The translations under genes and the position numbers were made by a program. From an uncultured Acidobacteriaceae bacterium (GTDB lineage Bacteria > Acidobacteriota > Terriglobia > Terriglobales > Acidobacteriaceae), in the NCBI GenBank assembly GCA_963844905.1, contig CAWJQD010000003.1, positions 14,785-78,784 of the forward strand: a stretch of DNA of 64,000 nt. Reading direction: 5' to 3'. The notes below the pieces were generated by a model. It had not been told where the DNA came from, ran no database searches, and worked only from the letters and a program-made list of their open reading frames with translations. Positions 3,066-63,990 of the stretch are shown piece by piece. Every line of letters starts with the position of its first letter. Position 1 is the stretch's first letter.

Positions 3066-3243
3066 GCGTCCTGTCCACGGAAGGACCGTGCCCGGCATCG
3101 AATTTGAGTTACCAGGGGATCATTGCTGGATCGTCGGCGATCCGGAAGTAACTTTTTTTATAGCATCAGTCTGACCAACGACCGAATGCATTGAATTCAG
3201 GCTCGCCGGCCGCAAGCCCGCCCAGTGCTATACTCGCAGAGCC

Positions 3244-7502: not shown

Positions 7503-8063
7503 GTGGGCCAGCGCTTGGCCGACCAAGGCCGGCTGGGACGCCGGCCCCCAGCCAAGGGGAGATTCCAGGTGAGACTTTCCATTGAGCAACTTCTCTACGA
7601 CCCCTGCGAGGGTCTCAACGACGACCCAACACCGCCTACTCACGTTCGCGAATGCTATGAAATCCTCGCAGGCCCTATGGTAAATCTTCCAATTCAAATC
7701 CAATGGAACAACGAGAGAATGGCTAAGGCCAAAGAGATAGTAGCTAGAGCCGATGAGAGAATAGCTAAGGCCAATGGGAGAAGAGCTAACACCAGTGGGA
7801 AACTGTCTAAAACCAGCCAGAGGGTAGTCAAAGCCAATGAGAGGATAGCTGAGGCCAATAAGAGAATAGCTGAGGCCAAAGCTTACCTTTGCGACGCCGT
7901 CGAACGGTGTAAGGCCACATACGGCGAAGCTGATACTGTCGTCGCCTTTGAGGCTCTTTTGGAAAAGCTGGGCACTCCAGCCATGAGTTGCCGAGAAAGC
8001 GGGGATCCCCGTAAGTCCGCACTTTTGCCGGCGGGTGACCTAAGTGTGACCACCTTAAAATGA
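7503..8063 (+). CDS. Hypothetical coiled-coil protein with 8 tandem heptads (start uncertain)
   Basis: 21-bp tandem repeats at 7713-7880 encode ERMAKAK/EIVARAD/ERIAKAN/.../KRIAEAK in frame. Confidence 0.55.
   Translation: MGQRLADQGRLGRRPPAKGRFQVRLSIEQLLYDPCEGLNDDPTPPTHVRECYEILAGPMVNLPIQIQWNNERMAKAKEIVARADERIAKANGRRANTSGKLSKTSQRVVKANERIAEANKRIAEAKAYLCDAVERCKATYGEADTVVAFEALLEKLGTPAMSCRESGDPRKSALLPAGDLSVTTLK
7713..7880 (+). repeat. 8 x 21-bp imperfect tandem repeat (consensus gagagaatagctaaggccaat)
   Basis: Units are directly readable starting at 7713 and every 21 nt up to 7860. Confidence 0.9.
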
Positions 8064-8065: not shown

Positions 8066-8110
8066 GGGTGCCCAGGTCCGGATTTTTGGACCTGGGAGAG
8101 TATCAACCTC
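8066..8110 (+). repeat. REP-like palindrome, family A
   Basis: gggtg-cccaggtcc-ggattttt-ggacctggg-agagtatcaacctc, a perfect 9-bp stem. Confidence 0.75.
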
Positions 8111-9999: not shown

Positions 10000-10117
10000 C
10001 GTTTGGATTCGGTTCGGATCCTGAATCGAACACACGCCCTCACGTTAAAAAATCCGTTTGATTATCTCAATAATTTGCGAACACAAAGCTGCGGCAGTTG
10101 AGTTAGGAATCGCACCA

Positions 10118-11824
10118 ATGACCAAGACGAACTCGGAAAGTCAGGGCAATCTTACTCACACGAACTTCCTCCGCGACATCATCGCCGAGGATGTCCGCAC
10201 CAAAAAGTTCCGCGACGCCCAAATCCAGACCCGCTTTCCTCCCGAGCCCAACGGCTACCTCCACATCGGCCACGCCAAGGCCATTTGCATCGACTTCGGC
10301 CTCGCCGACGAGTTCGGCGGCAAGACCAACCTGCGCTTCGACGACACCAATCCCGAGAAGGAAGAGACGGAGTACGTCGAATCGATCATGGCCGACGTGC
10401 GCTGGCTGGGCTTCGATTGGGACCGCCTCTGCTACGCCTCCGACTACTTTGGCCAGCTCTACGAGTGGGCTTTGCAGCTCATCAAAGCCGGCAAGGCCTA
10501 CGTCGACGACCTCAGTGCCGACGAGATTCGCCAGCACCGCGGCACGCTCACCGAGCCCGGACGGGACAGCTCCTTTCGCAACCGGTCAGTCGAAGAGAAT
10601 CTTGACCTGTTTACCCGCATGAAGCAGGGCGAGTTCCCCGACGGCAGCCGCGTCCTCCGCGCCAAAATCGACATGGCCTCGCCCAACCTCAACATGCGCG
10701 ATCCCGTGATGTACCGCATCCTGCATGCGACGCACCATCGCACCGGCGACGAGTGGTGCATCTACCCCATGTACGACTACGCCCACGGCCAGTCCGACTC
10801 CATCGAGCAAGTCACCCACTCCATGTGCACGCTCGAATTCGCCGACCACCAGCCCCTCTACAAGTGGTATATTGCCCAGCTCGGAATCTTTCCCTCCGAG
10901 CAAATCGAATTCGACCGCCTCAACCTCACCTACACCATTCTCTCTAAACGGAAGCTACTGCAGCTGGTGAACGAAAAGCATGTGAACGGCTGGGACGATC
11001 CGCGCATGCCCACCCTCTCCGGCATTCGCCGCCGCGGCTTTACCCCCGAGGCCATCCGCGCCTTCTGCGCGCAGATCGGCGCCTCGCGCACAAATGGGGT
11101 CACGGATATCGAGATGCTCGAGCACTTCCAGCGCGACGACCTCAACCGCCGCTCTTCCCGCGCCATGGCCGTCCTGCACCCCCTCAAGCTAGTCATCGAC
11201 AACTACCCCGAGGGCAAAGAGGAATCTGTGGAAGTGGCCAACAACCCCGAAGACCCCTCCGCTGGAACGCGCCAGGTGCCCTTTTCCCGCGAGCTCTACA
11301 TCGAGCAGGATGATTTCCGCGAGACTCCTCCGCCCAAGTACTACCGCCTCTCTCCCGGCAAGGAGGTCCGCCTTCGCAACGCCTACTTCGTCACCGCCCA
11401 GCGCGTGGTCAAAGACGCGGCCGGCAACATCGTCGAAGTCCACTGTACCTATGATCCGGCCAGCCGCGGCGGCAACTCGCCCGACGGCCGCAAGGTGAAG
11501 TCCACCATGCACTGGGTCTCGATCTCCCACGCCATCTCCGCCGAAATCCGTCTCTACGACAAGCTCTTCTTGAAGGCCGATCCATACGACATAGCGGAAG
11601 GCGAGGACGTCCTCTCGAATCTCAACCCCAACTCCCTCGAGATCCTCCGGGGCGCAAAGCTTGAGCCCTCTCTCGCCGGCGCCAAACCCGGCGACCGCTT
11701 CCAGTTCGAGCGGGTCGGCTACTTCTGCCTCGATCCCGACTCGGCTCCGGGCAAGCTGGTGTTCAACCGGACGCTGCCGCTGAAAGACACTTGGGCGAAG
11801 ATCGAGAAGAAGGCGGGCGCGTAG
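10118..11824 (+). CDS. glnS: Glutamine--tRNA ligase
   Basis: [39 protein letters not shown] and FQFERVGYF; ATG at 10118. Confidence 0.97.
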
Positions 11825-13474: not shown

Positions 13475-13867
13475 TTACGGAATCAGATACGCCCCCGGAA
13501 TCCCCTCGTCCAGCGTCGCCAGAACCGCTCCATTCGCGCTTGCCAGTTGCACGAGATGGCCGTCCGTGGTCTGCGCCGGGCTTTTTGCCCACTTCGGCAA
13601 GAATGAAATGTCATTCCCGTCGTTTATGAATTCGAGCGGGAACTCTTTCCACGCCTTCAGTTCCTGCAATAGGGATTTTGCGTGTGCCACGTCCATGCCG
13701 TAGGTTCGAACATTCCCAAGCACGCGAACGAATCCAAGCTCGGTGATAGAACATGTCAGGAAGCGATCGCCCTTTCGGGATCGAATCCAGGCGCCAACCC
13801 GATCGTGGAAATCATGCTGCCTGAATCCATAGGCGATGAGCGCGTTGACGTCCAGAAGGTACCTCAT
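13475..13867 (-). CDS. vapC: PIN domain (VapC) toxin
   Basis: YLLDVNALIA, ITELGFVR, TTDGHL and LATLDEG provide the acidic PIN residues. Confidence 0.9.
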   Translation of the reverse strand: MRYLLDVNALIAYGFRQHDFHDRVGAWIRSRKGDRFLTCSITELGFVRVLGNVRTYGMDVAHAKSLLQELKAWKEFPLEFINDGNDISFLPKWAKSPAQTTDGHLVQLASANGAVLATLDEGIPGAYLIP

Positions 13868-14124
13868 GGAAAGTCAACGAGCAGTTCTCGGACCATCTTG
13901 CTGGTCAGAATCGGCGCATCAGGGCCCAGGTCAATCACCGGAAAACCCGTGATGGGGTCTTTAATGATTCTGGCCTTGGAGCGCGTCCCCTTTTTGGGGG
14001 CTGTCAGAACAATCCGATCCTTCTCGATGGCAATATCGAGTGGATCGCCGGCGCGGAGGCCCAGCCTGCGGCGCAGCGGCGTGGGGATCACGATCTGGCC
14101 TTTGGTGGAAACCCGGGTCTGCAT
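13864..14124 (-). CDS. AbrB/MazE/SpoVT family antitoxin (VapB-type)
   Basis: TRVSTKGQIVIP..LRRRLGLRAGD swapped-hairpin motif; 4-nt overlap with the PIN gene. Confidence 0.9.
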   Translation of the reverse strand: MQTRVSTKGQIVIPTPLRRRLGLRAGDPLDIAIEKDRIVLTAPKKGTRSKARIIKDPITGFPVIDLGPDAPILTSKMVRELLVDFP

Positions 14125-14144
14125 GGTAAGACGATCTTACCATG
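14122..14144. promoter_or_regulatory. Perfect inverted repeat, candidate vapBC autoregulatory operator
   Basis: catggtaaga-cga-tcttaccatg has 10-bp arms and overlaps the antitoxin start codon. Confidence 0.65.
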
Positions 14145-15445: not shown

Positions 15446-15620
15446 GGCTCCATTGTACGAGCCTGAGCGATGAGCAAAGAACCGCACAGAGTGCCCGGCC
15501 GCTGCCGCTCGTCGTTCTCCGTTCCCTCTTCCCTATTCCTTTGTCCCTTGTTTCCTCGCTCGCTAGTCCCTACGTCCCTAATCCCTACGTCCCGGCCTTT
15601 GCTGTTACCATCAAAAGCCA

Positions 15621-23542: not shown

Positions 23543-26500
23543 TTATTGCACGTCTCCGGCGTGTGCGTCGCGTGCATGCTGCCCCAACGGCAGCGGAATG
23601 CGCCGCAGGTGCATCCCCAGCGGACCGGGATGAAAGCCCGCATCCATGAGGAAGCGCGCCATGAAATGCGCCGCCACCGGCTGGCCGTTGATGGTCGTGA
23701 TCAGCACGCCTTCATGGCTGTTCGCTCGCATCCTCTCCTGCCCGCGCGAGCAGAGAAAATGCGCCAGCCCCGCTGCTGCTTGCGACCGCTCCGGCTCTTC
23801 GGCAGGCAAAAAGATCAGCAGGTTGGGATTGCCGCGACGCAGCCACGCCACCAATTGGCCGTTGCGCAAAATGACCTCCGCATAGGCCGCGCGCGTCAAT
23901 ACGCGCGGCGCGCTCTCCGTATCCTCCTCGGCCACCGGAAGATCGGGCCAGCGCAGCACCGAGCCATACGGATTGGCGGGGTCGGCCGCGGCCAACTGCA
24001 CAAATTCCGGCTTTTCCGCCGGAGGCTCGGTCCGCAACTGCCGCAGCAGGTCCACCGCAGCCGACAGTGCAAACTGCGTGGCGCCTAATCCGCCTACAAA
24101 ATAGCCACGGCGAATCCGCCCGCTCTCTTCGAGCGCCTTCAGCACGTCATACACCGCGCTGAATCCGCCGGGCACGTTTTCCGCCGCCACTTGCTCGCGC
24201 AACAGCACGCCGTAGCGGTGGAGCAACTGCAGCGCGAGAGCGTGGCTGCGATGAGTAGTTGTTGCCTCACCGCTTTTGTTCAGGAAGGCTGCTGCATGCA
24301 ATGCCCAGCGCCCTTGCGCGGTGGGCGGCGTGGTGCGGCGCGAACGGAAGACCACGCCTGTCTGGTAGCGGCGCGGCGTTCGCGCGCTCTCGGGCTTCGC
24401 GATATAGGCGCGCAATGCGTGCAGCGAGTCGTTGGTGATCAGCCCGCGCCACACCAGGCTCCAAAGTGCATCCATCGTCTCGCCGGGATAGCCGCCGCCC
24501 GCGGCCTGGTGCAGCGGTTCGAAGAAGCTCGCGCCCGTCGACCCCAGCACGGCAACCAACTTTTCCTCGCGCTCCGTCAGCGGTTCCAAAAGCGGCCGTT
24601 GTTGGGCCAGCAGCGGCAACTTGTCCGCGAGAAACAGCGCGATGCGCCCATCGCGCTCGCCGATCGGCTCGACCCCGGCCCACGCCACCTCGCCCGCAGC
24701 GATCAGCGTGTCGAGCCCCGCCGGTGTGTAATCGGCAATGCGCGCCGGCAGAATCGAAGTCTCCAGCAGCGAAGCGGGCAAGGGCGCGCCTTGCAGAGAT
24801 TCAATCGCGTCAAGCAGTGCATCCAAATGCGCTGATCCGGTTCGGCGCGGCGCCAGCAGGCCCTGCCAGTGGGTGAGGAAGCGCGCCAGCGTGTGCTGCT
24901 CCACCGGCTCGACCTCGCGGCGCAGCCTGGCCAGCGACTTTCTTCGGATTTGCCGCAGAATCTCCGCGTCGCACCACTCACGGTGAAGGCCGGCGGGACG
25001 GAAACCGCCTTCGAGCACGCGGCCTTCCTGCGCAAGCTGCCGCAGCGCTCCCTCTACCGCGCTCGCGTCAAGCGCAAATCGATCCGCGGCCTCGCGCAGC
25101 GTAAACGGTCCGTGCGTGCGCGCGTAACGCCGCACCAGCTCTAGCACCGGATGCGCCACCGGTTCCAACAGCGCAGCCGCCAATCCCGGCGGCAGCGGAA
25201 TCCCTAGCCCGTCGCGGTACCGCGCGGCGTCTTCTGCGGCAATCAACCGCTTCTCGCCGGCAATGTGCAACTCCAGCAACCGCCGTGAGCGGATAAGCCG
25301 GTCGACATGCGTCAGCAATTCCGCCGAAATCACGCGCCGGCTCAGCTCCTCGCGCGTCAGATCGCCCAGCCGCAGGCACAGATCGTGAATTCCATCGGCT
25401 GACCGCGCGCGGTAATTCTCCGCTAGGCACTGTGCCGCCCCCTCGACCTCCGCAATGGCATCGGCGTCGAGCAGCTCGCGCAGATCGGCTTCGCCCAGCA
25501 GCTCGCGCAACTGCTCCTGATCGATGGTGAGCGCCTGTGCGCGGCGCTCGGCCAGCGGCGCGTCGCCTTCGTACACAAAATTTGCCACGTAGCTGAACAG
25601 CAGCGATGACGCAAACGGCGAAGGCTTGTGCGTTTCCGCCACGTGCACGCGCACCTGCCGCTGCTCGATGGCGCGCAGCGTCTCAATCAGCGCCGGCATG
25701 TCGAACACGTCGCGCAGGCACTCCCGATAGGCTTCCAGCAGCAGCGGAAACTTGGGATAGCGCGAGGCCACGCTGAGCAAATCGTAAGACCGCTTGCGCA
25801 ACTGCCACAGCGGCGAGCGTTGGTCGGCGCGGCGCCGCGGCAGCAGCAGCGCGCGGCCCGCCGCCTCGCGAAAGCGCCCGGCAAACAGCGCCGTCGATCC
25901 CAACTGGCGCAGCACAAGCTGCATGGCCTCGGCCGATTCCACCAGAATCCAATCCGCATCGGGCGGCTCTTCCGTGTCAGGAAAACGCAGCACAAAGCCG
26001 TCGTCGCCCCACAGCGTTTCCACCTCAGGCCCGCCTGCGCCGCGGATGCGCGCGCTCACCGCCATCGCCCAGGGAATGTGGATGCGGCTGCCGAAGGGCG
26101 TCAGCACGCAGATGCGCCAATCGCCCAGCTCGTCGCGGCAGCGCTCCACCACGATCGTCCGGTCGTCCGGAACCTGGCCCGTCGCATCGGCTTGGTCGGC
26201 GAGAAAACGCAGCAAATTCTCCGCGGCTCCGGGATCGAGATCATGCTCGTTGACGAGGCGCGTGAGGGCCGCCGCTTGCGGCAGCGCGCGCAGCTCGCGC
26301 ACCATGGCGCCGATGCGCCGGCCGAATTCGAGCGGGCGTCCCGGTCCGTCGCCTTTCCAGAACGGCATCTTGCCCGGCTCGCCGGGCGCGGGCGTCACCA
26401 GCACGCGGTCGTGCGTGATGTCCGTGATGCGCCATGTCGACGCGCCAAGAACAAACGTCTCGTTAGGGTGCGACTCGAAGACCATCTCTTCGTCGAGCTC

Positions 26501-28617
26501 GCCCACGCGCACCGCCTTGCCCTCGGTGAAGGCGAGGAAGACGCCGTAAAGGCCGCGATCGGGGATCGTCCCGGCGTTCAGAATCGCCAGCCGCGCCGCG
26601 CCGTCGCGCGCCGTCACCACGTTGCGCACGCGGTCCCACGTCAGCCGCGGCCGCAGCTCGGCGAACTCGTCGGAGGGGTAGCGCCCGCTCAACAGGTCGA
26701 GCACGCCCTCGAAGGCCGAGCGCGAAAGCGACGCGAACGGCGCCGCCCCACGCACCAGGTCGAAGAGAAAATCGACAGAGACTTCAGGATGAGCGGGGTC
26801 AGCGGGGCTTGCGGAGTTCGTGCTCTTCCAGGTCTCAAAATCGAGACCTGGGGTGCCCGCAGCGGCTACCTCTGCGGCAGTTTGCTTGTTCCCTCGTTCC
26901 CTCGTTCCCTTGTTCCCTGTCTTCCGCGCCGCCGCCACAATCGCCACCAATTGCTGCGCCAGCACGTCCAGCGGATTGCGCGGAAACCGCGTCGATTCGA
27001 TCTGTCCCTCGTGCATGGCGCGTGTCACCGCAGCGCAGGCCACCAGATCGGCGCGATACTTGGGAAAGATCACGCCTTCGCTGACCGCGTCCACGTGATG
27101 CCCGGCGCGCCCGATGCGCTGCATCCCGCTGGCCACCGACGGCGGCGACTCAATCTGGATCACGAGATCCACTGCGCCCATGTCGATGCCCAGCTCCAGC
27201 GTCGAAGTCGCGCACAGCGCGCGAATCTGCCCGGCCTTCAGTTGCTCTTCGATCACCGCGCGCTGCGCTGCCGCCAACGAACCGTGATGTGCGCGCGCAA
27301 TGGGCTCTCCGGCCAGGTCGTTCAGCGCCCCGGCCAGCCGCTCGGCAGTCTGCCGCGCGTTTACAAACAAAATCGTCGAGTTGCGCTCGCGGATGATTTC
27401 GAGCAGCCGGGGATGGATCGCATTCCAGATCGAGACGCGCCGCGGCGTCTGCGAGGCCGGGCCGGAGGGGATCTCCTCCATCTCGCCCAGCCGCGCCATG
27501 TCTTCCACCGGAACCTCGATGCGCAGCTTGAGCCACTTTGGCGCGGCGGCATTCACAATGGTGACGGGACGGTAGCGCAGAGCAGCGGCATCGTCAACGC
27601 CGCCCAATTCAGCGCTGTCATCCTGAGCGACCGGAGCGGAAGCGGAGGGAGTCGAAAGCCTGCCCTGAGCGGAGATCGCGAAAGCGATCGCAGACGAATG
27701 GGGATCTGCGGTTGCTCTTAAGCAGCCTTGCGAAGGCGCACGGCCCTCCACTGAAGGCAAAGCCGTCGGATCGCGCCTCGCCAGTTCCTCTGACGCCAAC
27801 TGACTTGCTGACTTGCCGGCTTGCTGACTCGCTGACTCGCCTTTCAACCCTCGCTCAATCTCAATGCCCCCAAGAAACCGCGCCACTTCTTCCAGCGGCC
27901 GCTGCGTAGCCGAGAGGCCAATGCGCTGCAGCGGCTTTGCCGTCAGCGCCTGCAGTCGCTCCAGCGTCAGCGCCAGATGCGCGCCGCGCTTCGTGGGCAC
28001 CAGCGCGTGAATCTCGTCCACTATCACGGTGTCTACGGTGCGCAGCGCCTCGGCCGCCTGCGAGGTCAGCAGCAAATACAGCGACTCCGGCGTGGTGATG
28101 AGAATCTCGGCGGGATGCCGCGCGAACCGTGCCCGCTCCCGCTGCGGCGTGTCGCCGGTGCGCACGCTGATCAGCGGTTCATGGAACTCGACCCTCATGC
28201 GCCGCGCCATCTGGCCATTCCGGCCAAAGGCGAGCGCAGGTTCCGTTCCACGTCCACCGCCAGCGCTTTCAGCGGCGAAACGTAAACGATCCGGCAGCCC
28301 CGCTGTTCGTCCCCAGTCTTCTGACCCCTGATCTCCGTTCCCTGATCCCTGTTTTCTCGTTCCCTGGGTCCCTGGGTCCCTTGGTCCCTGTTTTCCAGCA
28401 TCAGCCGGTCCAGGCACCACAAGAACGCGGCCAGCGTTTTGCCGGTGCCCGTCGGCGCCAGGATCAGCGCATTCTCGCCGCGCGCAATCACCGGCCAGCC
28501 CATCCGCTGCGGCGCAGTCGGCTCGTCAAAGACAGCCTTGAACCACGCCGCAGTCACCGGGTGAAAGCAGGCAAACGGATCGGAGATTTCCAACGGATTT
28601 GACGGGTGAGGAGGCAT
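23543..28617 (-). CDS. lhr: Lhr superfamily 2 helicase (long form), with a 1-nt frameshift near 28212 (sequence error or pseudogene)
   Basis: The N-terminal ORF 28195-28617 carries APTGTGKT and YVSPLKAL. The other frame continues with RTGDT, DEIH, SAT, LELGIDMG, QRIGRAGH and the long Lhr C-terminal domains. Confidence 0.9.
26813..26860 (-). repeat. REP-like palindrome, family A, inside the lhr CDS (in frame)
   Basis: Reverse complement gcgggcaccccaggtctcgattttgagacctggaagagcacgaactcc encodes GTPGLDFETWKSTNS and resembles the intergenic copy at 8066. Confidence 0.75.
27616..27718 (+). repeat. GTCATCCTGAGC-type palindromic element (family B) inside the lhr CDS
   Basis: Shares the identical 31-mer gtcgaaagcctgccctgagcggagatcgcga and both ends with the intergenic copy at 63882-63990. 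Confidence 0.85.
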
Positions 28618-28732
28618 ACTGCTCTATCGAGAGTAACGCAACCGGCATGGCGAATACAAAGCGAATAGATCTCGATCAATGCAGAGAATGAATCGCCCCG
28701 GACTCACCACGGTGATTTGCCGCCGGTTCCCG

Positions 28733-28790
28733 TTTCCTACTTCCTGTTCCCTATTCCCTATTCCCTATTCCCTATTCCCTATTCCCTGCC
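28733..28790. repeat. Heptamer tandem repeat (TTCCCTA)n at the 3' end of the YihY gene
   Basis: ttccctattccctattccctattccctattccctattccctg is preceded by degenerate units. Confidence 0.9.
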
Positions 28791-29744
28791 TCTTTGTCCC
28801 CACCGCGACACGCTGAACTGTGCTCCCGCAAACAGAATCAGCCCCGAGACATAAGCCCAGAACAGCAGCCCGACGGAAACGAAAAACGGTCCATACAGCG
28901 ACTGCAAATCCAGGTGCGGCAGCGCCGTCGCAAAGATGAATCGCGCAATCAGCCAGATGATTCCCGTAATAATCGATGTCCGCAGCACCGGCCGCCACGG
29001 CACCTTGCGATTGGGAAGCACGTAGTAGACCGAGAAGAAAAACAGGATCGAGGCAATGCCGGTGGAAGCGGCCAGCCAGAGATGGCTCCAAACATAGTTG
29101 ATTCCCTTGAATACGATGTTCCCTGTGTGATGAAAAAACACCACCGGGAGAAAGCTCTGCGCCGCCACATTTACAACCATGCTGATGACACCCAGTGCTA
29201 CCATCAGCAGCGCCAATCCGACGGCAATTGTCTGGTTGAATAGATAATTCCGGCTCTTGCGCACGCCCCACGCCTGGTTCAGCGCGACTTCCAGCGGCAG
29301 AAAGATGCCCGTGCACGAGATCAGAATCATCACCAGCGAGAAAGCCTGCGCGCCGTGCCGCTTCAATAACGGCGCCACGGCTTCCGCCACAATGGTGCGC
29401 GTCACCCAATCCGATTGTTTGGTGGCCGAGGGCAGATAATAGTTCACCATATCGTTCACCACTCCCACCATGGCTTGCGAGTGGAAGACCGAGAGCGCCA
29501 GCGTGTAGAGAAGGACCACAAACGGAATAAACGAGATGATGGCATTGGCCGCCACGCTGAAAGCAAAGGTGTGCACCTCGCTGTCGAGCAGGTAGGCAAT
29601 CAGCGCGGTGCCCTCTTTTCGCCACAGGTACCACTTCGATTTTGTGACGGGTTCAGCAGGGCCGGTCGCGGCGGCGGCAAGTGCGGCCCCGGCGGTCTGG
29701 ATGTCGGCTGCAACATCGGATGCGGACTTCGATTCATCAGCCAC
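28779..29744 (-). CDS. YihY/virulence factor BrkB family membrane protein
   Basis: ALNQAWGV, YYVLPN and YGPFFVSVGLLFWAYVSGLILFAGA. Confidence 0.88.
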   Translation of the reverse strand: MADESKSASDVAADIQTAGAALAAAATGPAEPVTKSKWYLWRKEGTALIAYLLDSEVHTFAFSVAANAIISFIPFVVLLYTLALSVFHSQAMVGVVNDMVNYYLPSATKQSDWVTRTIVAEAVAPLLKRHGAQAFSLVMILISCTGIFLPLEVALNQAWGVRKSRNYLFNQTIAVGLALLMVALGVISMVVNVAAQSFLPVVFFHHTGNIVFKGINYVWSHLWLAASTGIASILFFFSVYYVLPNRKVPWRPVLRTSIITGIIWLIARFIFATALPHLDLQSLYGPFFVSVGLLFWAYVSGLILFAGAQFSVSRWGQRGRE

Positions 29745-29888: not shown

Positions 29889-31100
29889 TCATGAGCCATT
29901 CTCGGAGTTCTCCAGTCGCCGCAGCTTTGCCAGCGCCCACCGCGCGCCGGCGCGCAGACCCTCGTCCGCCGCTGAGGCCCACGTTTCGAGCAAGGGCGCA
30001 AACCGCGCCTGCCGGCTGTTGCCCATGGCGATAGCCACGTTGCGCCGCAAGCCCAGGAATCCCGCCCTGCGCACGGGCGACCCGTTGAACTGCTGCTCAA
30101 AGGACTGCTCGTCCAGCGAGCCCAACCATTCCAGCGCGGGATTGACGAGTTCCGCGCGCGCTTCGAGCTCAGCGTCCACAGCGATGGGCGCTTTCCGATT
30201 CCACGGGCACACATCCTGGCAGATGTCGCAGCCGAAGACCTGCCGCCCCATGCCTTCCGCCAACTCCTGCGCGATCGGACCTTTGTGCTCGATGGTCAGG
30301 TACGAGATGCAGCGCGTCGCATCCATCTGGTAGGGCACAACGAGCGCGTTCGTCGGGCAGGCCTCGAGGCAGCGCGTGCAACTGCCGCATCGGTCAGGAA
30401 CTTTCAGCCCCGCTCCGAAGGAAGGCCTGCGGGAATCGTTCGCCGCCGGCTCGCTGACTTGCCGGCCTGCCGACTCGCTCAGCTCCAGCGAAGTCAGCAG
30501 CACCGCCAAAAATCCAAACGACCCCAGCTTGGGATGAATCAGGCACGTGTTCTTCCCCGTCCATCCAACGCCAGCCGCACTAGCCAGCGCCCGTTCCACC
30601 ACCGGCCCGGTGTCAACATACGCGCGCGACTCGAATTCGCCAAGCCTTGCGTGAAGCTCGGCCTCGACGGCGCGAATCCGCTTCAGCAGCACCTTGTGAT
30701 AGTCGCTCGGCCGCCGCTCACCCTTCGCATCTGCCCGGCTCGTCCACGCGTAGCGCGCAATCCATCCTGCGCCCTCTGCCGCCGGCTCCGTCGACCGCGC
30801 CTGCGCGGTGTAGTAATTCGCAAAGCAAACCAGCGCCGAGCGTGCCCACGGAAACAAAACTCCCACGCGCACCCGCGCCAACCGCCCGTCCTCCGTCGTC
30901 CGCTTCAGGTAGCGCATCGTTCCCGCGCGCCCCCTGCCCACCCAATCGCGAAAGCGGCCGGCGTCGCGCGCCTCGTCCGCGTGGGGAAGCGCCACCACGC
31001 CCGCCTCGGCAAAGCCTGCTGCCAGCGCCAAGGCGCGCGCCTGTTCCCGTGTCAGTCGGCCCGCGCGCATAGTGGATGAAACGACCACGGAACTTTCCAT
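29889..31100 (-). CDS. queG: tRNA epoxyqueuosine(34) reductase
   Basis: YVDTGPVVER, CGSCTRCLEACPT, RCISYLTIE and FGCDICQDVCPWN. Confidence 0.95.
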   Translation of the reverse strand: MESSVVVSSTMRAGRLTREQARALALAAGFAEAGVVALPHADEARDAGRFRDWVGRGRAGTMRYLKRTTEDGRLARVRVGVLFPWARSALVCFANYYTAQARSTEPAAEGAGWIARYAWTSRADAKGERRPSDYHKVLLKRIRAVEAELHARLGEFESRAYVDTGPVVERALASAAGVGWTGKNTCLIHPKLGSFGFLAVLLTSLELSESAGRQVSEPAANDSRRPSFGAGLKVPDRCGSCTRCLEACPTNALVVPYQMDATRCISYLTIEHKGPIAQELAEGMGRQVFGCDICQDVCPWNRKAPIAVDAELEARAELVNPALEWLGSLDEQSFEQQFNGSPVRRAGFLGLRRNVAIAMGNSRQARFAPLLETWASAADEGLRAGARWALAKLRRLENSENGS

Positions 31101-32657: not shown

Positions 32658-35390
<2,733 letters not shown>

Positions 35391-35412
35391 TCGGAGCCTT
35401 GCTCCAACCACC

Positions 35413-35440
35413 GGGGGCGTCCCCTATTGAGGACGCCCCC
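35413..35440. terminator. GC-rich hairpin after ppdK, likely an intrinsic (possibly bidirectional) terminator
   Basis: gggggcgtcc-cctattga-ggacgccccc forms a 10-bp stem, followed by tctgcttttg. Confidence 0.7.
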
Positions 35441-35464
35441 TCTGCTTTTGCGGGCGACTTGCGG

Positions 35465-35600
35465 TCAAAAGCTACAGCGGTTCCACAATTGCTGTATGCC
35501 GAAGTAACAACAGCTAAGTGGGTTTTTCCTCAAGAAAAACCCACCTTGTGCCACCGCCGGAGACGGCTACAAGTATTGTGGAACCGCTCTAGAAGCTTGA
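35465..35600. ncRNA. Candidate structured ncRNA (rod with central bubble), strand unknown
   Basis: A 14-bp perfect stem (35476-35489/35575-35588) extends inward, then an internal bubble, then an 11-bp apical stem (35518-35528/35534-35544). Confidence 0.35.
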
Positions 35601-35861
35601 GGCTGAATAGAGGGTTGCAGAGGGCGTGACGACGACAGTGCGCCGCCCTATCCTTAAAAAAACAGAGACGCAGTGCCCAGGGCGCTCAAGTGGGGCGGCG
35701 GGCCACACGCGATTCTCTGTCCCTCAAAAAACCTTTCGCATCGACGTCTGCACCTATACTTGAAGTGCGATGCTCTTCGCAGCGAGGTTTCCCCGGAATT
35801 GAAATATTGGGTTGGGGTCAGAGGACTATTTACGCGTTTTTTCGCTTGGCTGGCGCGCCTG

Positions 35862-37247
35862 ATGCCGACGGAGCGGCAGCGGCTGCTGGCGATCACTATC
35901 GTGGCCGGTGCATTATGCGGGACGGCCGCGGTCGCATTTCACATCAGTTGCCAGATTCTGTACAAGTATCTGATCAATCGCGCCACTGCCGCTCCAGGCC
36001 ATAGCTGGATCTGGTGGACGATTTTGACTCCGGCGGTTGGCGGGTTGGTGGCTGGCGTCGGGTTGACGTATTGGGTGCCTGAGGCAGCAGGCAGCGGCAT
36101 TCCCCAGGTGAAGACGGCCTACACTTTCCGATTCGGCGCCGTTTCGATCAAGGAGGCCTTCGGCAAGTTCGTTTTGTGCGCGTTGCAGCTGGGCGCGGGA
36201 GCGTCGCTGGGCGTGGAAGGCCCGACAGTGCAGATCTGCGGTGGCGTGAGCAGTTTTCTGGCGCGCGCGGCCCGGCTGAGTCCCAAGAACCGTAGGCGCA
36301 TGGCCTCGGTCGGGATGGCGGCGGGCATTGCCGCAGCGTTCAATGCGCCGATAGCGGCGGTGACGTTTACGCTCGAGGAACTGATCGGGAGCCTGGACCA
36401 GACGATGCTTTCGGGAGTGATTGTGGCAGCGCCGCTGGCGGCAGTGGTAGAACACAGCATCATGGGCTCGAGCCCCATCTTCTACGTGCCGCGCCTGCAG
36501 ACGTTCACGCTCGGCAATGCTTCGTCGCTGGTGTGGTACGCGCTGCTCGGCCCACCAGCGGCCATCATCTCGGTGGCGTTTACGGATTCGCTGCTCTGGC
36601 TGCGCGCCTGGTTCAAACGTCTGACCAACGTTCCCAAGTGGGTGCATCCGGCCATCGGCGGCGCGGCCGCGGGGAGCTTTGCGGTGGTGGCGATCCTGTT
36701 CTTTCACGTGAACGGGATCGCCGGCAATCCCTATCCCACGCTCACACTGGCGCTGCTCGGCAATCTGCCGGTTATTGCCATGGCGGTATTGTGTGTACTC
36801 AAGCTGGCCGCGACGGTCACGTCTTACTCGAGCGGCGGCTCGGGCGGCATCTTTGCCCCGGCACTGTTTATGGGCGGGATGCTGGGCGGCGCGGTGGGCT
36901 ATCTTGATGTGACGGTGTTTCGCCACCCGGCCGACTCGATCGGGGCCTTTGCTGTGGTGGGCATGGGCGCAGTGTTTGCCGGAATTGTGCGCGCGCCAAT
37001 GACGTCGATCCTGATTATTTTTGAAATGACAGGCGGGTACGGGTTGGTGCTGCCGCTGATGATCGCCAACATGAGCGCCTTTGCGCTGGCGCGCCACTGG
37101 CGGCACACGCCGGTGTACGAGGCGCTGCTGGAACAGGACGGCATTTACCTGGATCGAAGGCACAGGCCGCACGGTCCTGAGGGGCCCACAGCAGCGCCTG
37201 TGGCCGAGCTGCGGGCGGAGGGGACGGTTTCGCGGGCGTTGCCGTGA
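35862..37247 (+). CDS. ClC family chloride channel / H+/Cl- antiporter, no CBS domains (start may lie further upstream)
   Basis: GSGIPQ, GVEGP, FTLEE, GGIFAP and PVYEAL signature motifs. Confidence 0.92.
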   Translation: MPTERQRLLAITIVAGALCGTAAVAFHISCQILYKYLINRATAAPGHSWIWWTILTPAVGGLVAGVGLTYWVPEAAGSGIPQVKTAYTFRFGAVSIKEAFGKFVLCALQLGAGASLGVEGPTVQICGGVSSFLARAARLSPKNRRRMASVGMAAGIAAAFNAPIAAVTFTLEELIGSLDQTMLSGVIVAAPLAAVVEHSIMGSSPIFYVPRLQTFTLGNASSLVWYALLGPPAAIISVAFTDSLLWLRAWFKRLTNVPKWVHPAIGGAAAGSFAVVAILFFHVNGIAGNPYPTLTLALLGNLPVIAMAVLCVLKLAATVTSYSSGGSGGIFAPALFMGGMLGGAVGYLDVTVFRHPADSIGAFAVVGMGAVFAGIVRAPMTSILIIFEMTGGYGLVLPLMIANMSAFALARHWRHTPVYEALLEQDGIYLDRRHRPHGPEGPTAAPVAELRAEGTVSRALP

Positions 37248-41492: not shown

Positions 41493-42626
41493 ATGGCTAC
41501 GCAACTCTCGTTTACGGGATTCGCCTGGAAGAATCTCTGGCGCCGGCGGCTTCGTACGATGCTGACAGTGTGCGGAATCACGATAGGCATCGGCGCATTT
41601 GTAGCATTGGTGGGGTTTTCGCAAGCATTTGAGCGTGATTCGGTGCGGTTGTATACGCACGCCGGCACCGATATTGCGGTGATTCAATCCGGCTTCGTCG
41701 GCGGTTTTCTCAATCAATCCCTTGAGAGCAAGATTCAAGCCGTCCCTGACGTAGAGCGGGCGGATCCGGTGCTCTACAATCTCGTCGACCTGACGCCCGA
41801 CGTGAGTGCGCTGGTTTATGGCTGGCAGGGCAATTCGTACGAGCTTGATACGCTGACTTACCTTTCGGGCGGCCGCATTCATGACGGAAAGCCCGAAGTG
41901 ATGCTGGGTAATCTGCTCGCTGACGACGTGAAGAAGAAAGCGGGCGATACGCTTCGAATCCAGGGCACGGTCTTCACGGTGGTGGGCATCATTCATGCGG
42001 GCACGATCATTGAAGATGGCGCGATGATCATGCCGCTCGATCAGTTGCAGGCTATCTCAGGTCAGGATGGAAAGGTGACGACCTTTCACGTCAGGCTGCG
42101 ACCGGCGCCGCCGGGCGAATCGTACGACACTTACGTGAAGGATGCGGAAAAGGACATTGAGGCAGCAGTGCCGGGGGTTCACGCAGACCCGGCCGCCGAA
42201 CGGGCTGCGAATAACGTTCTGATTTCTCTGCTTCGTTCGGTTGCATGGGGAACGTCGACTATCGCTCTTTTGATCGGGATCATCGGCATTGCCAACACCA
42301 TGGCGATGTCGGTATTCGAGCGGACACGCGAAATCGGCCTTCTGCGCGCGCTCGGCTGGAAAGGCCGGGACGTCATCCTGCTTATCCTCACCGAGGCTAC
42401 AGCCTTGGGGCTGCTGGGCGGGCTTCTTGGCATAGGCGTGGGCTGGGGAGCATTGCGGGTGCTGGCGGCGCTGCCGCAAACCGCCAACGTTTTATCGACT
42501 TCAGTTCCCCCGATTCACCTGCTCGAGGCACTTTTTGTCGCAATCGCTTCCGGAATAGCCGCCGGCGCTTACCCCGCGTGGCGCGGCGCGCACCTTTCTC
42601 CGGTGGAGGCGCTGCGGTATGAGTAG
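41493..42626 (+). CDS. ABC transporter permease, MacB/FtsX family
   Basis: NLWRRRLRT, NTMAMSVFERTREIGLLRALG and YPAWR...PVEALRYE; no ATPase gene nearby. Confidence 0.92.
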   Translation: MATQLSFTGFAWKNLWRRRLRTMLTVCGITIGIGAFVALVGFSQAFERDSVRLYTHAGTDIAVIQSGFVGGFLNQSLESKIQAVPDVERADPVLYNLVDLTPDVSALVYGWQGNSYELDTLTYLSGGRIHDGKPEVMLGNLLADDVKKKAGDTLRIQGTVFTVVGIIHAGTIIEDGAMIMPLDQLQAISGQDGKVTTFHVRLRPAPPGESYDTYVKDAEKDIEAAVPGVHADPAAERAANNVLISLLRSVAWGTSTIALLIGIIGIANTMAMSVFERTREIGLLRALGWKGRDVILLILTEATALGLLGGLLGIGVGWGALRVLAALPQTANVLSTSVPPIHLLEALFVAIASGIAAGAYPAWRGAHLSPVEALRYE

Positions 42627-42694
42627 CCCAATCTTTGAAGCGCTGGCGTGGTGGAGATCGCGGCGCCGGTAGCGCTTGTCAGGAGGCTAACAGG

Positions 42695-45600
42695 ATGTGG
42701 CGAAAACGATTTCAACTCACTCTGGTGTTGCTTCTTTCCTTTGCCTTTCCACTCTTTGCCAGCGGTCCCGCGGGAACCATCACCGGGACCATCACCGATC
42801 CCAGCGGTGCGGTGATCCCGAAGGCGCGAATCGTGGTGCGCAACGAGGGAACGAATGCAACTCGCGAGGCGCAGAGCAACGGGGAGGGTGATTACACCGT
42901 TGCGCTTCTGGCGCCGGGGCGCTACAGCGTGGCCGTGGAGAGCACGGGATTTCGCCGCAGCGTGATCCACGGCGTCATCCTCGATGTGGACCAAACGGTT
43001 CGAGTGGACTTCGCCCTGGTGGTGGGCGCGGCCAGTGAGAGCGTGATTGTCAACGAGACGCCTCCCATCATACAAACCGAAACGTCAACCCTCGGGCAGG
43101 TGGTAAACAATCGCCTGGTGCAGGACTTGCCGCTCAACGAGCGCAACTTTCTTTCGTTCGCTCTGCTTGTGCCGGGGAGCGAATTACCAACGCAGGGTTC
43201 CCAGAACTCGACGCTGGGCGGCTCAATCAACGTTAACGGGGCACGCGACCAGGCGAACAACTTCCTTCTGGAGGGAGTGGACAACACCGATTCGTTTATC
43301 AACCAGTATGTTGCGCTGCCTTCGATCGATGCCATTCAGGAGTTCAAGGTTCAATCGGGCGATTATTCGGCCGAATTCGGGCGGGCCAGCGGCGCCGAGG
43401 TCAATGTGGTTCTGAAGAGCGGCACGAATTCCTTTCATGGCGGGGTTTTCGAGTTCGTGCGCAACCGGCACATGGACGCCAAGAACTATTTCGATCTCCC
43501 CGACTGCACCGCCAGTTCGGCGCCGGGCACGTGCGGCCCCATTCCGCGCCTCGATCGCAACCAGTTTGGCGGAACATTGGGCGGACCCATACGCAAGGAC
43601 AAGACATTTTTCTTCTTCTCCGACGAGCAGCTCCGCTTGCGCCAGGCAACGACCAGAGAAGCGACCGTGCCCTCGGTGAACCAATGGGCGAATGCGTGCG
43701 CCCTGGGCGAGGAGATTGGCGGGAACCCTACGCCGAATCCAGCCACGTGCAACATTGCCACCTCAATGTATCTGAATCCGGCAGGCCAGGCAGTCTACGG
43801 CCTCTATCCGGCGGCCAACGTCGGCACGGACCTGACGGATTCGAATACGTACCTTTCCGCCCCGGTCATCCGCGAATCATTGAACCTGATCTCTGCCAAG
43901 GTGGACGAGCAGGCCAGTCCCGCCGACGCGCTTTCGATCCATTACTCCGTCAGAGATGAAAACCGGTTTGATCCCTTCGATCCCCTGAACGCCTTCACAT
44001 CGCTCCCCGGTTACGGCAGTTACACGATGAATTTCGGCCAGAACGCCGGAGTGGACTGGACGCGCGTTATTCGTTCCAGCATGGTGAACGAATTCCGCTT
44101 AGGCTACAACCGGATGGGCGTCACGGTGCTGCAGCAGAGTCATGGCGAAAACATCGAGGAGCAGTTGGGCTTCCCGGATGTTCTCACCAATCCCGTCGAC
44201 CTGGGCGCTCCCAACATCAACCTGAGCGGCAACCTGAACGGCAGCCAGATCAGCTTCGACGGCATTGGCGAACCCGTGAATTACCCGCAGAACCGTCGCG
44301 ACAACACCTACCAAATCTCCGATAACCTCGCCTGGACGGTGGGCATCAACCAGCTCAATATCGGAGGCGACCTGCGGCGCATCCAGATTGGCAACTACCT
44401 GGATTTTCTGGCCCGCGGAGATTGGTTCTTCGGGGGCCAGACCATGGCAGGAATCCTGAGTGAACTCAAGGCCATGGGCGTCATTAACAATCCCACCCCC
44501 TGCACCGGGGCTCCCCCCAACGACCCAGCTACCTGCGTCCTTGGCCAGTTGCTCATCGGCGCTCCCGACTACGCCATCGCCGTCAGCGGTAGCACCTTCA
44601 ACGACATCGGGAGCCATGGCGTCAGCGCCTACATTCAGGACGATATTCACGTCATGCCGCGTTTTCTCGTCAACGCCGGGCTGCGTTACGAGTACAACAG
44701 CCCTCTGGTGGAGGCGCACAACCACTTCAGTGTTCCGGATCTTGTTTTCTGCCCCGAACCCTGTTCACTCTCGCCCCAGTTCAACCTGGCAGGGACGAAT
44801 GGTATTCCAGACGCAACTTACTTCCCGACCCGTAGAGACATTGCCCCGCGTGTTGGAATCGCGTGGCGGCCTATGAAGTCAGAGCGCTTTGTGGTCCGGT
44901 CTGCCTATGGCATCTTCTACGACGTGGCCATTGGCGACATCAATATTCTGCCGCACGGCAATCCGCCGTTCGAAAACATGGCCGCATACCTTCAAAGCCC
45001 CAACTGTCCCGGAGGACTGTGCACGGTGCAGGACCTTCTGGCCCAGACCGGACGGCAATCGGGCGTGGTGCAGGGCAACATGATCGATCCTCATTTCCGC
45101 GACGGATACATGCAGCAGTGGAACCTGGACCTGCAGTATGAGGTGGCGCCCAACTGGATGATCGACCTGGCCTATGTCGGTTCCAAGGGCACGCACCTGT
45201 CCAACGTGATCGATCGGAATCAGACTAATCCCCTAACGGGTGCGCCCTACGGCCAGTTCTCCTCGGTGCTGTACGTCGAATCGAGTTCCGCGAGCAGCTA
45301 TCACTCCATGCAGTTTCGCTCGGAAAGACGCGTAAGCCACGGCCTGGCATTCCTCGCTGCCTATACCTGGTCCCGGTCGATTGACGATGTCTCCTCCGTC
45401 TTCGCCGGAAGTGTGGGTTCAGGGCTGCCCCAGAATTCGCAGGACCTGAGCGCAGATCGCGGCCCTTCGGACTTTAACGCCACGCACCGCGTGTCCGTAA
45501 GCTCTGTGTATGACTTGCCGTTGCGCGGTCAGGGCGCCAAGGGCTCAGCCTGGAACAAAGCGCTGCTGGATGACTGGCAGGCGAGCGGCATCTTCTCGGC

Positions 45601-46123
45601 GCAGTCGGGATCGCCCTTTACTGTGGTTTTGGCGGGTTCACCCACCGCCTCCGCCGCAGCCTTTGGCAATCCGGAGCGGCCGGACCTCGTCGGTGATCCA
45701 AACAGAGCCGGAGCCGTGGCTGCTAATCCCACCTGCGTAGCGCCTACCCAGATCCGGACGCCCCAAAACTGGTTCAATCAGTGTGCCTTCGCCTCGCCTG
45801 CCACCGAGGACTTCGGCCCGGCCTTCGGCACAGAAGGGCGCAACGCCCTCACAGGCCCACCCTATGCCGATCTCGATTTCTCTCTGTCGAAAAGCTTCGC
45901 GATCCGCCACGAGAGTCAACGCCTGCAGTTTCGTGGGGAATCCTTCAATCTGCTGAATCACCCCAACTTCGATGATCCATACCATGACTTCGAGCTCGCA
46001 ACCTGCGGCGCCAACAACAACTTCCTCTGCCCAACGGCAAACTTTGGCGCTGTTTTATCTTCGAACGCCTTCGGAGACAAACCGCCCCGGCAGACTCAGT
46101 TGAGCTTCAAGTACGTTTTCTGA
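42695..46123 (+). CDS. TonB-dependent receptor with N-terminal carboxypeptidase-regulatory-like domain
   Basis: AGGAGG RBS, signal peptide, GTITGTITDPSGAVIP, LPLNERNF, EFKVQSG.YSAEFG and a C-terminal aromatic residue (KYVF). Confidence 0.92.
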   Translation: MWRKRFQLTLVLLLSFAFPLFASGPAGTITGTITDPSGAVIPKARIVVRNEGTNATREAQSNGEGDYTVALLAPGRYSVAVESTGFRRSVIHGVILDVDQTVRVDFALVVGAASESVIVNETPPIIQTETSTLGQVVNNRLVQDLPLNERNFLSFALLVPGSELPTQGSQNSTLGGSINVNGARDQANNFLLEGVDNTDSFINQYVALPSIDAIQEFKVQSGDYSAEFGRASGAEVNVVLKSGTNSFHGGVFEFVRNRHMDAKNYFDLPDCTASSAPGTCGPIPRLDRNQFGGTLGGPIRKDKTFFFFSDEQLRLRQATTREATVPSVNQWANACALGEEIGGNPTPNPATCNIATSMYLNPAGQAVYGLYPAANVGTDLTDSNTYLSAPVIRESLNLISAKVDEQASPADALSIHYSVRDENRFDPFDPLNAFTSLPGYGSYTMNFGQNAGVDWTRVIRSSMVNEFRLGYNRMGVTVLQQSHGENIEEQLGFPDVLTNPVDLGAPNINLSGNLNGSQISFDGIGEPVNYPQNRRDNTYQISDNLAWTVGINQLNIGGDLRRIQIGNYLDFLARGDWFFGGQTMAGILSELKAMGVINNPTPCTGAPPNDPATCVLGQLLIGAPDYAIAVSGSTFNDIGSHGVSAYIQDDIHVMPRFLVNAGLRYEYNSPLVEAHNHFSVPDLVFCPEPCSLSPQFNLAGTNGIPDATYFPTRRDIAPRVGIAWRPMKSERFVVRSAYGIFYDVAIGDINILPHGNPPFENMAAYLQSPNCPGGLCTVQDLLAQTGRQSGVVQGNMIDPHFRDGYMQQWNLDLQYEVAPNWMIDLAYVGSKGTHLSNVIDRNQTNPLTGAPYGQFSSVLYVESSSASSYHSMQFRSERRVSHGLAFLAAYTWSRSIDDVSSVFAGSVGSGLPQNSQDLSADRGPSDFNATHRVSVSSVYDLPLRGQGAKGSAWNKALLDDWQASGIFSAQSGSPFTVVLAGSPTASAAAFGNPERPDLVGDPNRAGAVAANPTCVAPTQIRTPQNWFNQCAFASPATEDFGPAFGTEGRNALTGPPYADLDFSLSKSFAIRHESQRLQFRGESFNLLNHPNFDDPYHDFELATCGANNNFLCPTANFGAVLSSNAFGDKPPRQTQLSFKYVF

Positions 46124-46876
46124 TCGCATTCGTGCAGTCATGACGCCCTGCCGCAAGCAACGGAGACGTGCTGTGAGCTCGTACAGCACTTCTCCTCCAG
46201 GTGTATCCCGAAACCTCTAACGTTGAGTGGTGATTCTCTTGAGGAATCGCCACTTTGCACAGCAGATGCAAAAGCTACAGGTGAAGGAGAAGTGCTCTAA
46301 GCTCTACAAACTTGCGTGAGGTTCCCGATGTTTCCATGGGCCACGGCTTACGAGGCTAACTTCTCACCGCGCTCTCATCGCTCAATTGTTCAATCATCGG
46401 AATCGTGGGCGGACGTTCCTCTTGTTGCATCTCCTGCTGCGTCTTGAGCCAAGTCCAGGGGACCCGAATCCTCATTCGCGAGCTTCTGCAAACTCGGTCG
46501 CGGGAAACGGGCCGATGGTCTCAGTTGATGCAAAATCAAGAATTCACTCTTTGACGCAGTGTTGTGGTCGCATTAACGCCCAACCGTAGATTGCCATTTG
46601 CGCATTACCTGTTCCCCTTCAGCGAAAGCCGTGGAGATACTGATGCGTGAGGGCGGTAAGGGTTCCCCTCTTGCCGAAAAGTACATCCGTCTCTTTTGGC
46701 CTTGCAATTGCCTTATGAGCGATATGATTTTAGGGAACCGGTGGCGAACAAGGAGATTCCGGCTAATCCAGCCGTGATACATTTTTGAAGCGAACCAAAA
46801 GCAACGAGTTCATGCCGCCTAAATTCAGAAATTCGTGCGCTAAGGGAGGCGGCAATTTTCCAAGACGGGAGATGAA

Positions 46877-51815: not shown

Positions 51816-52149
51816 AATTGACAGCACCCTTCATCCTTTCGTCGAAATCGTATCCCCAAGCGGACGAATTCAAGGGGCCATATATGATCCCGCCTTGTAC
51901 GCAAGAGCTTTCTTCAATGGAGCAGCGGGAAGGAGACGCGTACAAGTGTCCGAGAAATCGCTTCGGAATGGGGCAAATCGTGGCTTTTTGGTCCTGGCAA
52001 AGGCCGTGTCGCGCACGACCGGGTCTTTGGCCTTGGAACCAATGCAAAACAGATCGCGAGCGGGGGCAACTGGGCGTATATTGTCAGCGGTCCTGAAAGC
52101 AAAATGGAAATTCCGGTCAGCACAATTCGAAGAAATAGGAGTAGTGATT

Positions 52150-63881: not shown

Positions 63882-63990
63882 AAGAGCAACAGCAGGTCCC
63901 TATTCAACTTCGATCGCCGTCGCGATCTCCGCTCAGGGCAGGCTTTCGACTGCGTTTGGCGCAAGAAGCGCAAAGCTCCGCTCAGGATGA
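63882..63990 (-). repeat. GTCATCCTGAGC-type palindromic element (family B), intergenic copy
   Basis: Reverse complement tcatcctgagcgg...gtcgaaagcctgccctgagcggagatcgcga...gttgctctt matches 27616-27718. Confidence 0.85.

Follow-up and report, generated by a model that had tools for sequence, protein, structure and literature searches.

Heterocystous cyanobacteria carry genome-wide families of 7-nucleotide (nt) tandem repeats that are highly abundant and mostly intergenic. The term for such sequences, short tandemly repeated repetitive (STRR), occurs in PMC4748335 and PMC2670836. Repeats can also be read as protein: Rickettsia palindromic elements (RPEs) are inserted into protein genes with the frame kept (Ogata et al. 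[quoted passage not shown] Simple-sequence contingency loci of Neisseria and Haemophilus undergo phase variation by non-triplet repeats, for example homopolymeric tracts (PMC3723659). Here we describe the helicase gene lhr in a 64,000-nt stretch of DNA from an uncultured Acidobacteriaceae bacterium (contig CAWJQD010000003.1; hereafter the window, ~61% G+C), which carries repeats at three places in its core. An earlier note on this DNA had counted at least three repeat families in the gene; there are at least four sequence families, also found outside genes. We consider it likely that permissive, disordered loops of Lhr are sinks for repeat DNA that is filtered only for an open frame.

The lhr translation matches the Lhr of Mycobacterium smegmatis (7LHL, E = 1.7e-259; 5V9X, E = 7e-244) in four collinear blocks, and helicase motifs I (GTGKT), II (DEIH), III (SAT) and VI (QRIGRAGH), which are invariant among orthologues, are intact in it. 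Over the part searched, the product is 100% identical to P0001, a protein of 1691 amino acids (aa) annotated as 'MAG: DEAD/DEAH box helicase [Terracidiphilus sp.]' (MAG, metagenome-assembled genome), for which the precomputed Pfam domains (DEAD, Helicase_C, WHD_Lhr, DEAD_assoc and WHD 2nd, 3rd and 4th_Lhr) include the winged-helix modules of the Lhr C-terminal domain (CTD). By its sequence the window is from a Terracidiphilus-like soil acidobacterium. The alignment to M. smegmatis Lhr leaves three query segments unmatched, exactly where the earlier note had reported extra sequence (28300-28395, 27575-27865 and 26780-26935; the gaps are given in Table 1). Site 1 comprises 37 aa (MLENRDQGTQGPRERENRDQGTEIRGQKTGDEQRGCR) against 12 aa in M. 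smegmatis and lies between the APTGTGKT of Walker A and the VSPLKALA of motif Ia. Site 2 follows motif III and the EEVARFLGG helix and precedes the last strand of the first RecA domain (RecA1), and site 3 lies ~55 aa past motif VI, in the winged-helix (WH) domain between its first two helices. In M. smegmatis Lhr, RecA domain 1 spans aa 1-230, domain 2 aa 231-435, the WH domain aa 436-529 and domain 4 aa 530-856, and the surface loops of aa 70-74, 301-326 and 490-495 are disordered in the crystal (PMC5758891). Site 1 corresponds to the loop of aa 68-79, which contains the disordered residues 70-74 (PMC5758891), in agreement with the surface loop that had been predicted; sites 2 and 3 correspond to aa 221-224 and 453-457, both gaps between alignment blocks, and may likewise be disordered. 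The predicted translation spanning the inserts includes ...SAQGRLSTPSASAPVAQDDSAELGGVDDAAALR.

Each of the three segments contains repeats, as had been proposed: Tandem Repeats Finder (TRF) reports arrays of 7- or 8-nt units in all three, site 2 also holds a copy of an element that we call B, and site 3 holds a hairpin, family A, that resembles repetitive extragenic palindromic (REP) units. Four intragenic repeat sites were found in the 64-kb window, three of them in lhr (~9% of coding DNA). The two window copies of element B, one in site 2 and one intergenic and 36 kb apart, are 89% identical over 70 nt with an identical run of 32 nt, and the core 20-mer of the element occurs twice in the window against 0.02 expected. 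Beyond the window, at least 120 metagenome contigs contain an exact 21-mer of element B, and a consensus was built from 111 copies; when 123 copies among the matches listed were classed, two lay inside coding-like open reading frames (ORFs; at least 80 aa on both sides) and ~98% were extragenic. Element B is an extragenic repeat that survives inside genes only rarely. Both coding-like copies stand at the same internal position in orthologues of one unrelated, unnamed protein family (MSDTLYLSLWYPNL...; L125:541-1570 and L181:1668-2478, minus strand), where element B is in frame and forms a second hot-spot loop. Two protein searches were made with its peptide: a word-index search with 48 aa gave no candidate, and HMMER with 46 aa against 1.84 billion representatives gave one match (E = 8e-4), the query being too short to speak to the number of carriers.

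The two hairpins of site 3 fold with z = -3.87 relative to shuffled sequences. An exact or three-mismatch search of the window gave no second copy of the family-A hairpin, and a looser stem pattern (CAGGTC-N6-16-GACCTG) was required, which occurs three times in the window against 0.03 expected. In the intergenic counterpart at 8073-8094 both stem arms are changed and pairing is maintained. The same stem pattern is present in 20 of 201 fetched loci, some of them outside lhr, and at another lhr site. No Rfam family reached its gathering score in the window, and the region 26500-29000 gave a chance-level match only.

The tandem arrays were compared with a near-identical genome and with public sequencing runs. 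Contig L001, from the MAG GCA_049587515.1, matches the window from 28760 to 18543 at 99.9% identity (10.2 kb in common), and four runs (X1-X4) were read as assembled (Logan) contigs, a form that drops rare variants; the contigs of X1 and X2 hold 95% of the local words, and X3 represents a more distant strain. In X2, a metagenome, the assembler's k-mer depth climbs at the repeats from ~10 to 98, to 261 at the element B of lhr and to 2157-3440, or 200-300 times the genome, at the (AGGGAAT)n array upstream of lhr. That array is 28 nt (four units) longer in the window than in L001, and this difference between 99.9%-identical genomes supports array growth by slippage; at 28749-28787 it overlaps the stop codon of the upstream yihY/BrkB-like gene, and its copy number therefore alters the C-terminus of that protein. 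The 3' half of the BrkB-like gene (28820-29349 versus L001:1-570) is only ~80% identical between the two contigs and the next 10 kb 99.9%, a sharp boundary that points to recombination or a chimeric MAG contig. The array type of site 1 (family D2) also forms intergenic arrays. On the strand that carries it, the intergenic AGGGAAT unit has a stop codon in every frame, and the intragenic AGGGAACR and AGGGACCN units have none. Every GGGA-type array found has a G-rich minus strand and lies in the negative-skew half of the window, in which GC skew flips from negative to positive at ~35000-36000. The CTGACTTG octamer of site 2 has its only other copy in the window inside queG (epoxyqueuosine reductase, 29889-31100, minus strand), within ~21 aa that are missing from Bacillus subtilis QueG (5D08). 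The earlier statement that every insert has non-coding counterparts in the window is thus correct for element B, the family-A hairpin and the GGGAAC arrays, but not for this octamer.

We compared ~190 acidobacterial orthologues in total. A protein search provided the top 120 (80-86% identity; full-length ones 1605-1804 aa), and a scan of species-representative genomes gave 80 further loci, from which 72 intact genes were taken: Terracidiphilus at 79-89% identity; Acidisarcina, Edaphobacter, Granulicella, Terriglobus and Bryocella at 64-70%; and more distant Acidobacteriota at 58-62%. Among the top 120, almost all columns are invariant except at the three sites, where the content defies alignment and the lengths are 14-94, 34-124 and 46-90 aa (sites 1, 2 and 3). 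Across all ~190, segments of variable length occupy the same three places, and the frame is kept through differing inserts. Arrays of 7/8-nt units make up 7.4%, 3.4% and 2.3% of nucleotides at sites 1-3 of 73 species-level genes, versus 0.02% of the rest of the gene. The orthologue sites carry GGGAAC arrays in both orientations (peptides RDQGTKGTRE... and SLVPSPxVP...), GAGTCAGC arrays (SASQQVSES), element B in full or shortened form (TADPHSTS..SAQGRLSTP..VAQDD) and three palindromic REP-like units (HPSDKNKDVARVGHP, TPASTDRSPGxPAG and SHPxEQRSxAGDPG). The HPSDKN, TPASTDRSPG and SHPSEQ units have no copy in the 64-kb window. The REP-like units and the family-A hairpin are palindromic and the tandem arrays are not. 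Although the inserts had been expected to be strain-specific, they are common to related strains, being present in L001 and in related strains of other samples, and their content changes between species. The orthologues have a fourth hypervariable site in the CTD (P0001 aa ~1440-1455, window ~24250-24300), which is not expanded in the window and which in L014 (L014:5690-5724) carries a family-A hairpin. In one Terracidiphilus locus (L079:2200-2850), site 2 exceeds 600 nt, a 27-nt tandem repeat and an N-run gap accompany its GGGA arrays, and tracing the frame through it is impossible.

The same orthologues indicate what the repeats may have replaced. Site 1 has a baseline of 13-14 aa in all lineages, including many Terracidiphilus, and is expanded in a subset only; because of this baseline the 37 aa of the window read as a true net gain of ~23 aa. 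Site 2 is already an acidic linker of 26-88 aa in Acidobacteriaceae without recognisable repeats. For site 3 the length is 9 aa in the most remote genes and 25-35 aa in those of intermediate distance; many Terracidiphilus that lack recognisable repeats have a basic linker of 35-52 aa there, and the window, by the same comparison, has 56 aa. At sites 2 and 3 the repeats thus appear to have overwritten pre-existing linkers rather than lengthened them. The picture of a helicase that had absorbed three insertions by accretion therefore survives at site 1, is weakened at site 2, where repeat-free orthologues partly match the length of the loop, and is refuted at site 3, where they have equally long loops. 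A strong hairpin encodes the LxFExW motif of site 3 in the window and, with stem changes that compensate each other, in L034, and elsewhere the versions that encode it are progressively decayed; because of this gradation, the 'repeat-free' linkers of site 3 may be older, eroded insertions.

A claim that the inserts keep the reading frame had overlooked a frameshift that splits lhr: the repeats are read in frame, but the gene in the window lacks a single uninterrupted ORF, since the N-terminal ORF ends at a TGA (28195) after 140 aa and the helicase resumes in another frame. This truncation is what would favour a dead gene, that is, an lhr pseudogene whose frames stay open through the inserts by chance, a possibility that the earlier note had itself raised. 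The deletion responsible, at 28211, affects codon N136 within the invariant motif AGMANMARR (N136 and M137 are invariant in 22 orthologues) and lies 90 nt from the nearest repeat. It is the sole small indel across the 10.2 kb shared with L001, in which lhr is intact; contigs of X1 and X2 have an A put in plus C>T at 28211 at full depth, which gives an intact frame, and the X3 strain likewise carries an intact MANM. Downstream of the deletion, ~5 kb of lhr stays open. The ratio of nonsynonymous to synonymous substitution rates (dN/dS), computed outside the three sites between the window gene and eight orthologues, is 0.06-0.09 against seven Terracidiphilus and 0.20 against the more distant Acidisarcina L030. 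The lhr core is under strong purifying selection, and because dN/dS is this low outside the sites, the preservation of frame through the inserts is not due to chance; frame conservation and dN/dS together suggest that the inserts are translated into protein. Given the intact relatives, the single indel and the low dN/dS, the defect at 28211 either arose in assembly or is a lesion that one strain acquired very recently. An old pseudogene is ruled out, and chance frames in a dead gene are scarcely credible, ~190 orthologues keeping the frame through different inserts.

Because the units are 7-8 nt long, a change of one copy inside the ORF shifts the frame, which raises the idea of a phase-variable contingency locus in which non-triplet arrays toggle lhr by gain or loss of units. 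The four-unit difference in the neighbouring intergenic array between near-identical genomes and the 95% regularity of the site 3 array over four units are consistent with this idea. However, neither L001 nor the contigs of X1-X4 (assembled, so that rare variants are lost) contained a unit-number variant of the intragenic arrays, these arrays are short and imperfect, and the sole frameshift seen in the window lies outside the repeats. Four orthologues have apparent frameshifts, L021 in site 3, L079 in site 2 (at its N-run gap) and L060 and L078 in the CTD; L021, L060 and L078 are single-copy MAG contigs, in which assembly error is possible. We therefore regard phase variation as very improbable. 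A bolder variant, to which we give slight credence, treats the three loops and the fourth CTD site as preferred landing pads, at which G-rich or hairpin repeats would stall replication and be repaired by copy-in, drawing repeats to them repeatedly, with the resident non-triplet arrays making lhr reversibly switchable. If this were so, acidobacterial populations would own a built-in contingency switch on a repair function.

The inserts might instead be maintained by selection: as charged, disordered linkers they could adjust how Lhr binds DNA or oligomerises, or as G-quadruplexes or hairpins in DNA or mRNA they could regulate lhr. The repeat frame of site 3 (KTGNKGTRERGNK) retains the basic character of the linker that it would have replaced (PKAARPAKARKSTRRGK), and a comparison of the family-A hairpin of the window with that of L034 at this site reveals compensatory changes in the stem. 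The GGGAAC arrays match the G3N5 quadruplex motif, and for the site 3 array a G-quadruplex is part of the predicted minimum free energy structure (ViennaRNA, gquad option). The predicted quadruplex stabilisation is modest, however, and at site 1 it does not exceed that of shuffles; content, length and presence vary freely between species, site 1 being absent (14 aa) in many Terracidiphilus, and the inserts contain no conserved residues. We consider a selected function improbable.

We thus favour the reading in which the permissive loops of Lhr receive repeat DNA. Three places in the protein would be structurally permissive, namely the disordered surface loop of RecA1, the loop before its last strand and the loop between the first two WH helices. 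Short 7/8-nt units would expand there by replication slippage, and the ~100-nt element B and the REP-like hairpins would be copied in by whatever disperses them through intergenic DNA. Selection on the helicase would then purge variants that shift the frame or bear a stop, so that survivors would be translated as a hydrophilic, probably disordered and nearly neutral linker in a protein that is otherwise almost invariant. In time the inserts would decay or be overwritten, leaving related species with different repeats at the same three sites.

Several observations weigh against this reading, and some of them favour the alternative that the linkers are home-grown, low-complexity loops, old and unconstrained, that evolved in place by slippage and point mutation and resemble extragenic repeats through mutational bias. 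The intragenic and intergenic arrays have the same unit type yet are only 63-73% identical, so the arrays could have arisen by growth in place. With dS at 0.65-1.0, the species compared are close to synonymous saturation, and an unconstrained linker would therefore seem hypervariable even if its turnover were in no way special. All Acidobacteriaceae, those without recognisable repeats included, have linkers at sites 2 and 3. Moreover, no insertion event was caught in the act; the two-copy alignment and the 111-copy consensus of element B reveal neither terminal inverted repeats nor a target-site duplication at its ends, and the element folds no better than shuffles (z = -0.29 and +0.38) and has no significant palindrome. 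The lhr copy of the window is itself frameshifted, and an AlphaFold model from a shallow alignment (mean predicted local distance difference test score, pLDDT, 37.9; predicted template modelling score, pTM, 0.30) is too poor to show whether sites 2 and 3 are disordered and carries no weight here. Mutational bias in a home-grown linker does not, however, readily account for an element B in site 2 that shares long identity with an intergenic copy 36 kb off and an exact 21-mer with so many other contigs, almost always outside coding-like ORFs among the matches listed, nor for REP-like palindromic units and a family-A hairpin that recur at other loci in both orientations. We consider evolution in place unlikely, and insertion of repeat DNA into permissive loops remains our favoured explanation.

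Table 1. Features of lhr and related repeats in the window (positions are those of the 64,000-nt stretch).
Feature	Position	Strand	Basis or remark
lhr (Lhr-Core + Lhr-CTD)	23543..28617	minus	PDB match to M. smegmatis Lhr; ~1691 aa when intact
lhr halves	ORF 28617-28195, then ORF ...-23543	minus	split by frameshift
Frameshift, 1-nt deletion	28210..28212 (at 28211)	minus	window gccAGatgg versus intact relatives gccAATatgg
Site 1 insert (E75-R106)	28300..28395	minus	RecA1 loop, Walker A helix to motif Ia strand
Site 1 imperfect tandem array, 7/8-nt AGGGAMC-type units, G-rich on coding strand	28321..28390	minus	TRF CTGATCC/TCCCTGGG; regex scan; family D2
Site 2 segment (~95-99 aa versus 2 aa in M. 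smegmatis)	27584..27865	minus	alignment gap
Site 2 octamer array (GAGTCAGC)n encoding ESASQQAGKSASQ	27796..27841	minus	TRF 27800-27837, CTGACTTG x4.8
Element B (AAGAGCAAC...TTCGCTCAGGGCAGGCTTTCGAC...CGCTCAGGATGA), ~100 nt, in site 2	27618..27719	minus	encodes ATADPHSS..SAQGRLSTPS..VAQDD
Intergenic element B copy, just after an ORF stop	63882..63990	plus	alignment to site 2 copy
Site 3 segment (~50 aa versus 3 aa in M. smegmatis)	26789..26938	minus	alignment gap
Site 3 octamer array (AGGGAACR)x4 encoding GNKGTRERGNK	26888..26918	minus	TRF GTTCCCTC x3.9, 95% matches
Site 3 REP-like hairpin, family A, CCAGGTCTCGATTTTGAGACCTGG, encoding PGLDFETW	26828..26851	minus	fold
Second site 3 hairpin	26852-26883	minus	fold
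Intergenic counterpart of family-A hairpin, CAGGTCCGGATTTTTGGACCTG	8068..8100 (stem 8073-8094)	plus	stem pattern
Intergenic (AGGGAAT)n array upstream of lhr	28727..28801	minus	polymorphic copy number
Intergenic GGGA-type 7/8-mer arrays, between divergent genes	15516..15593	minus	TRF; regex scan
Octamer of GAGTCAGC/CTGACTTG family (D4), in frame in queG (SESAGRQVSEPAA)	30444..30479	minus	only other copy in window; D4 match 30450-30479

Other features of the window lie apart from lhr. A 591-aa ORF (10049-11821), probably glutaminyl-tRNA synthetase, has short copies of its 5' end (9148-9240/10163-10255, 89%) and 3' end (11747-11818/12149-12220, 75%) just outside the gene, which look like duplication remnants. 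A stretch of lower G+C (6-14 kb, 54-55%) contains eight copies of a 21-nt unit at 7709-7879 (70% matches) and, at 13478-14136, a pair of small ORFs resembling a toxin-antitoxin pair. A 61-nt repeat (84% identical; 40444-40504/55214-55274) and a 28-nt repeat (46561, 50612 and 55202), without an Rfam match, adjoin three ORFs of ~1050-1190 aa (42623-46120, 46844-50413 and 51688-54849).

Where such loops are permissive, the ~190 related genes amount to a clean natural experiment on the amount of foreign, repeat-derived sequence that a complex enzyme can bear and on its placement: the same three loops house at least six unrelated repeat families and the remainder of the 1,500-residue protein is almost unchanged. 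They mark permissive sites for engineering tags into Lhr, and they urge caution in annotation, in that repeat read-through may lie behind the lengths or 'novel regions' of acidobacterial proteins. Protein growth via selfish repeats would not be limited to reduced intracellular genomes such as that of Rickettsia, though it is rare per element copy here.

The analogy to RPEs drawn in the earlier note holds in kind and not in frequency. As with RPEs, several families of dispersed repeats in one genome are read as extra peptide within housekeeping proteins, in positions that the fold may tolerate; in contrast to the RPE families that are about half intragenic, element B is almost wholly extragenic among the matches listed and has no significant palindrome, non-triplet tandem arrays take part, three sites of a single gene have been colonised repeatedly across many species, and the host is a free-living soil acidobacterium rather than a bacterium with a reduced intracellular genome. 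The occasional in-frame read-through known from BOX, ERIC, QMITE1 and Anabaena MITEs is likewise a parallel, and the hairpin units here are REP-like, but no terminal inverted repeats or target-site duplications were identified in lhr, and the cited cases are mostly single insertions rather than recurrent hot spots. The arrays share with cyanobacterial STRRs their abundance, their mostly intergenic location and their 7-nt tandem units, yet belong to another phylum, have other units (AGGGAAY/AGGGAACR and GAGTCAGC) and include stop-free variants that would be translated inside genes. Contingency loci also have non-triplet tandem repeats in an ORF, and the array beside lhr is polymorphic in copy number; here, however, no on/off length variants were seen in the contigs, the arrays are both degenerate and short, and a cytoplasmic repair helicase takes the place of a surface antigen as the target. 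M. smegmatis Lhr shares the loop of site 1 and has an expansion of its own (aa 296-329) that is absent here, a sign that Lhr can accommodate loop expansions particular to a lineage, but the mycobacterial loops are not reported as repeat-derived (PMC5758891). A literature search found no description of these acidobacterial repeats or of a repeat-bearing Lhr. The lhr loops are thus a clear new example of a known process, the reading of repeats as protein, and not a new kind of system; what is new is the phylum, the participation of non-triplet tandem arrays and the way in which many repeat families have come back to the same three loops across ~190 orthologues.

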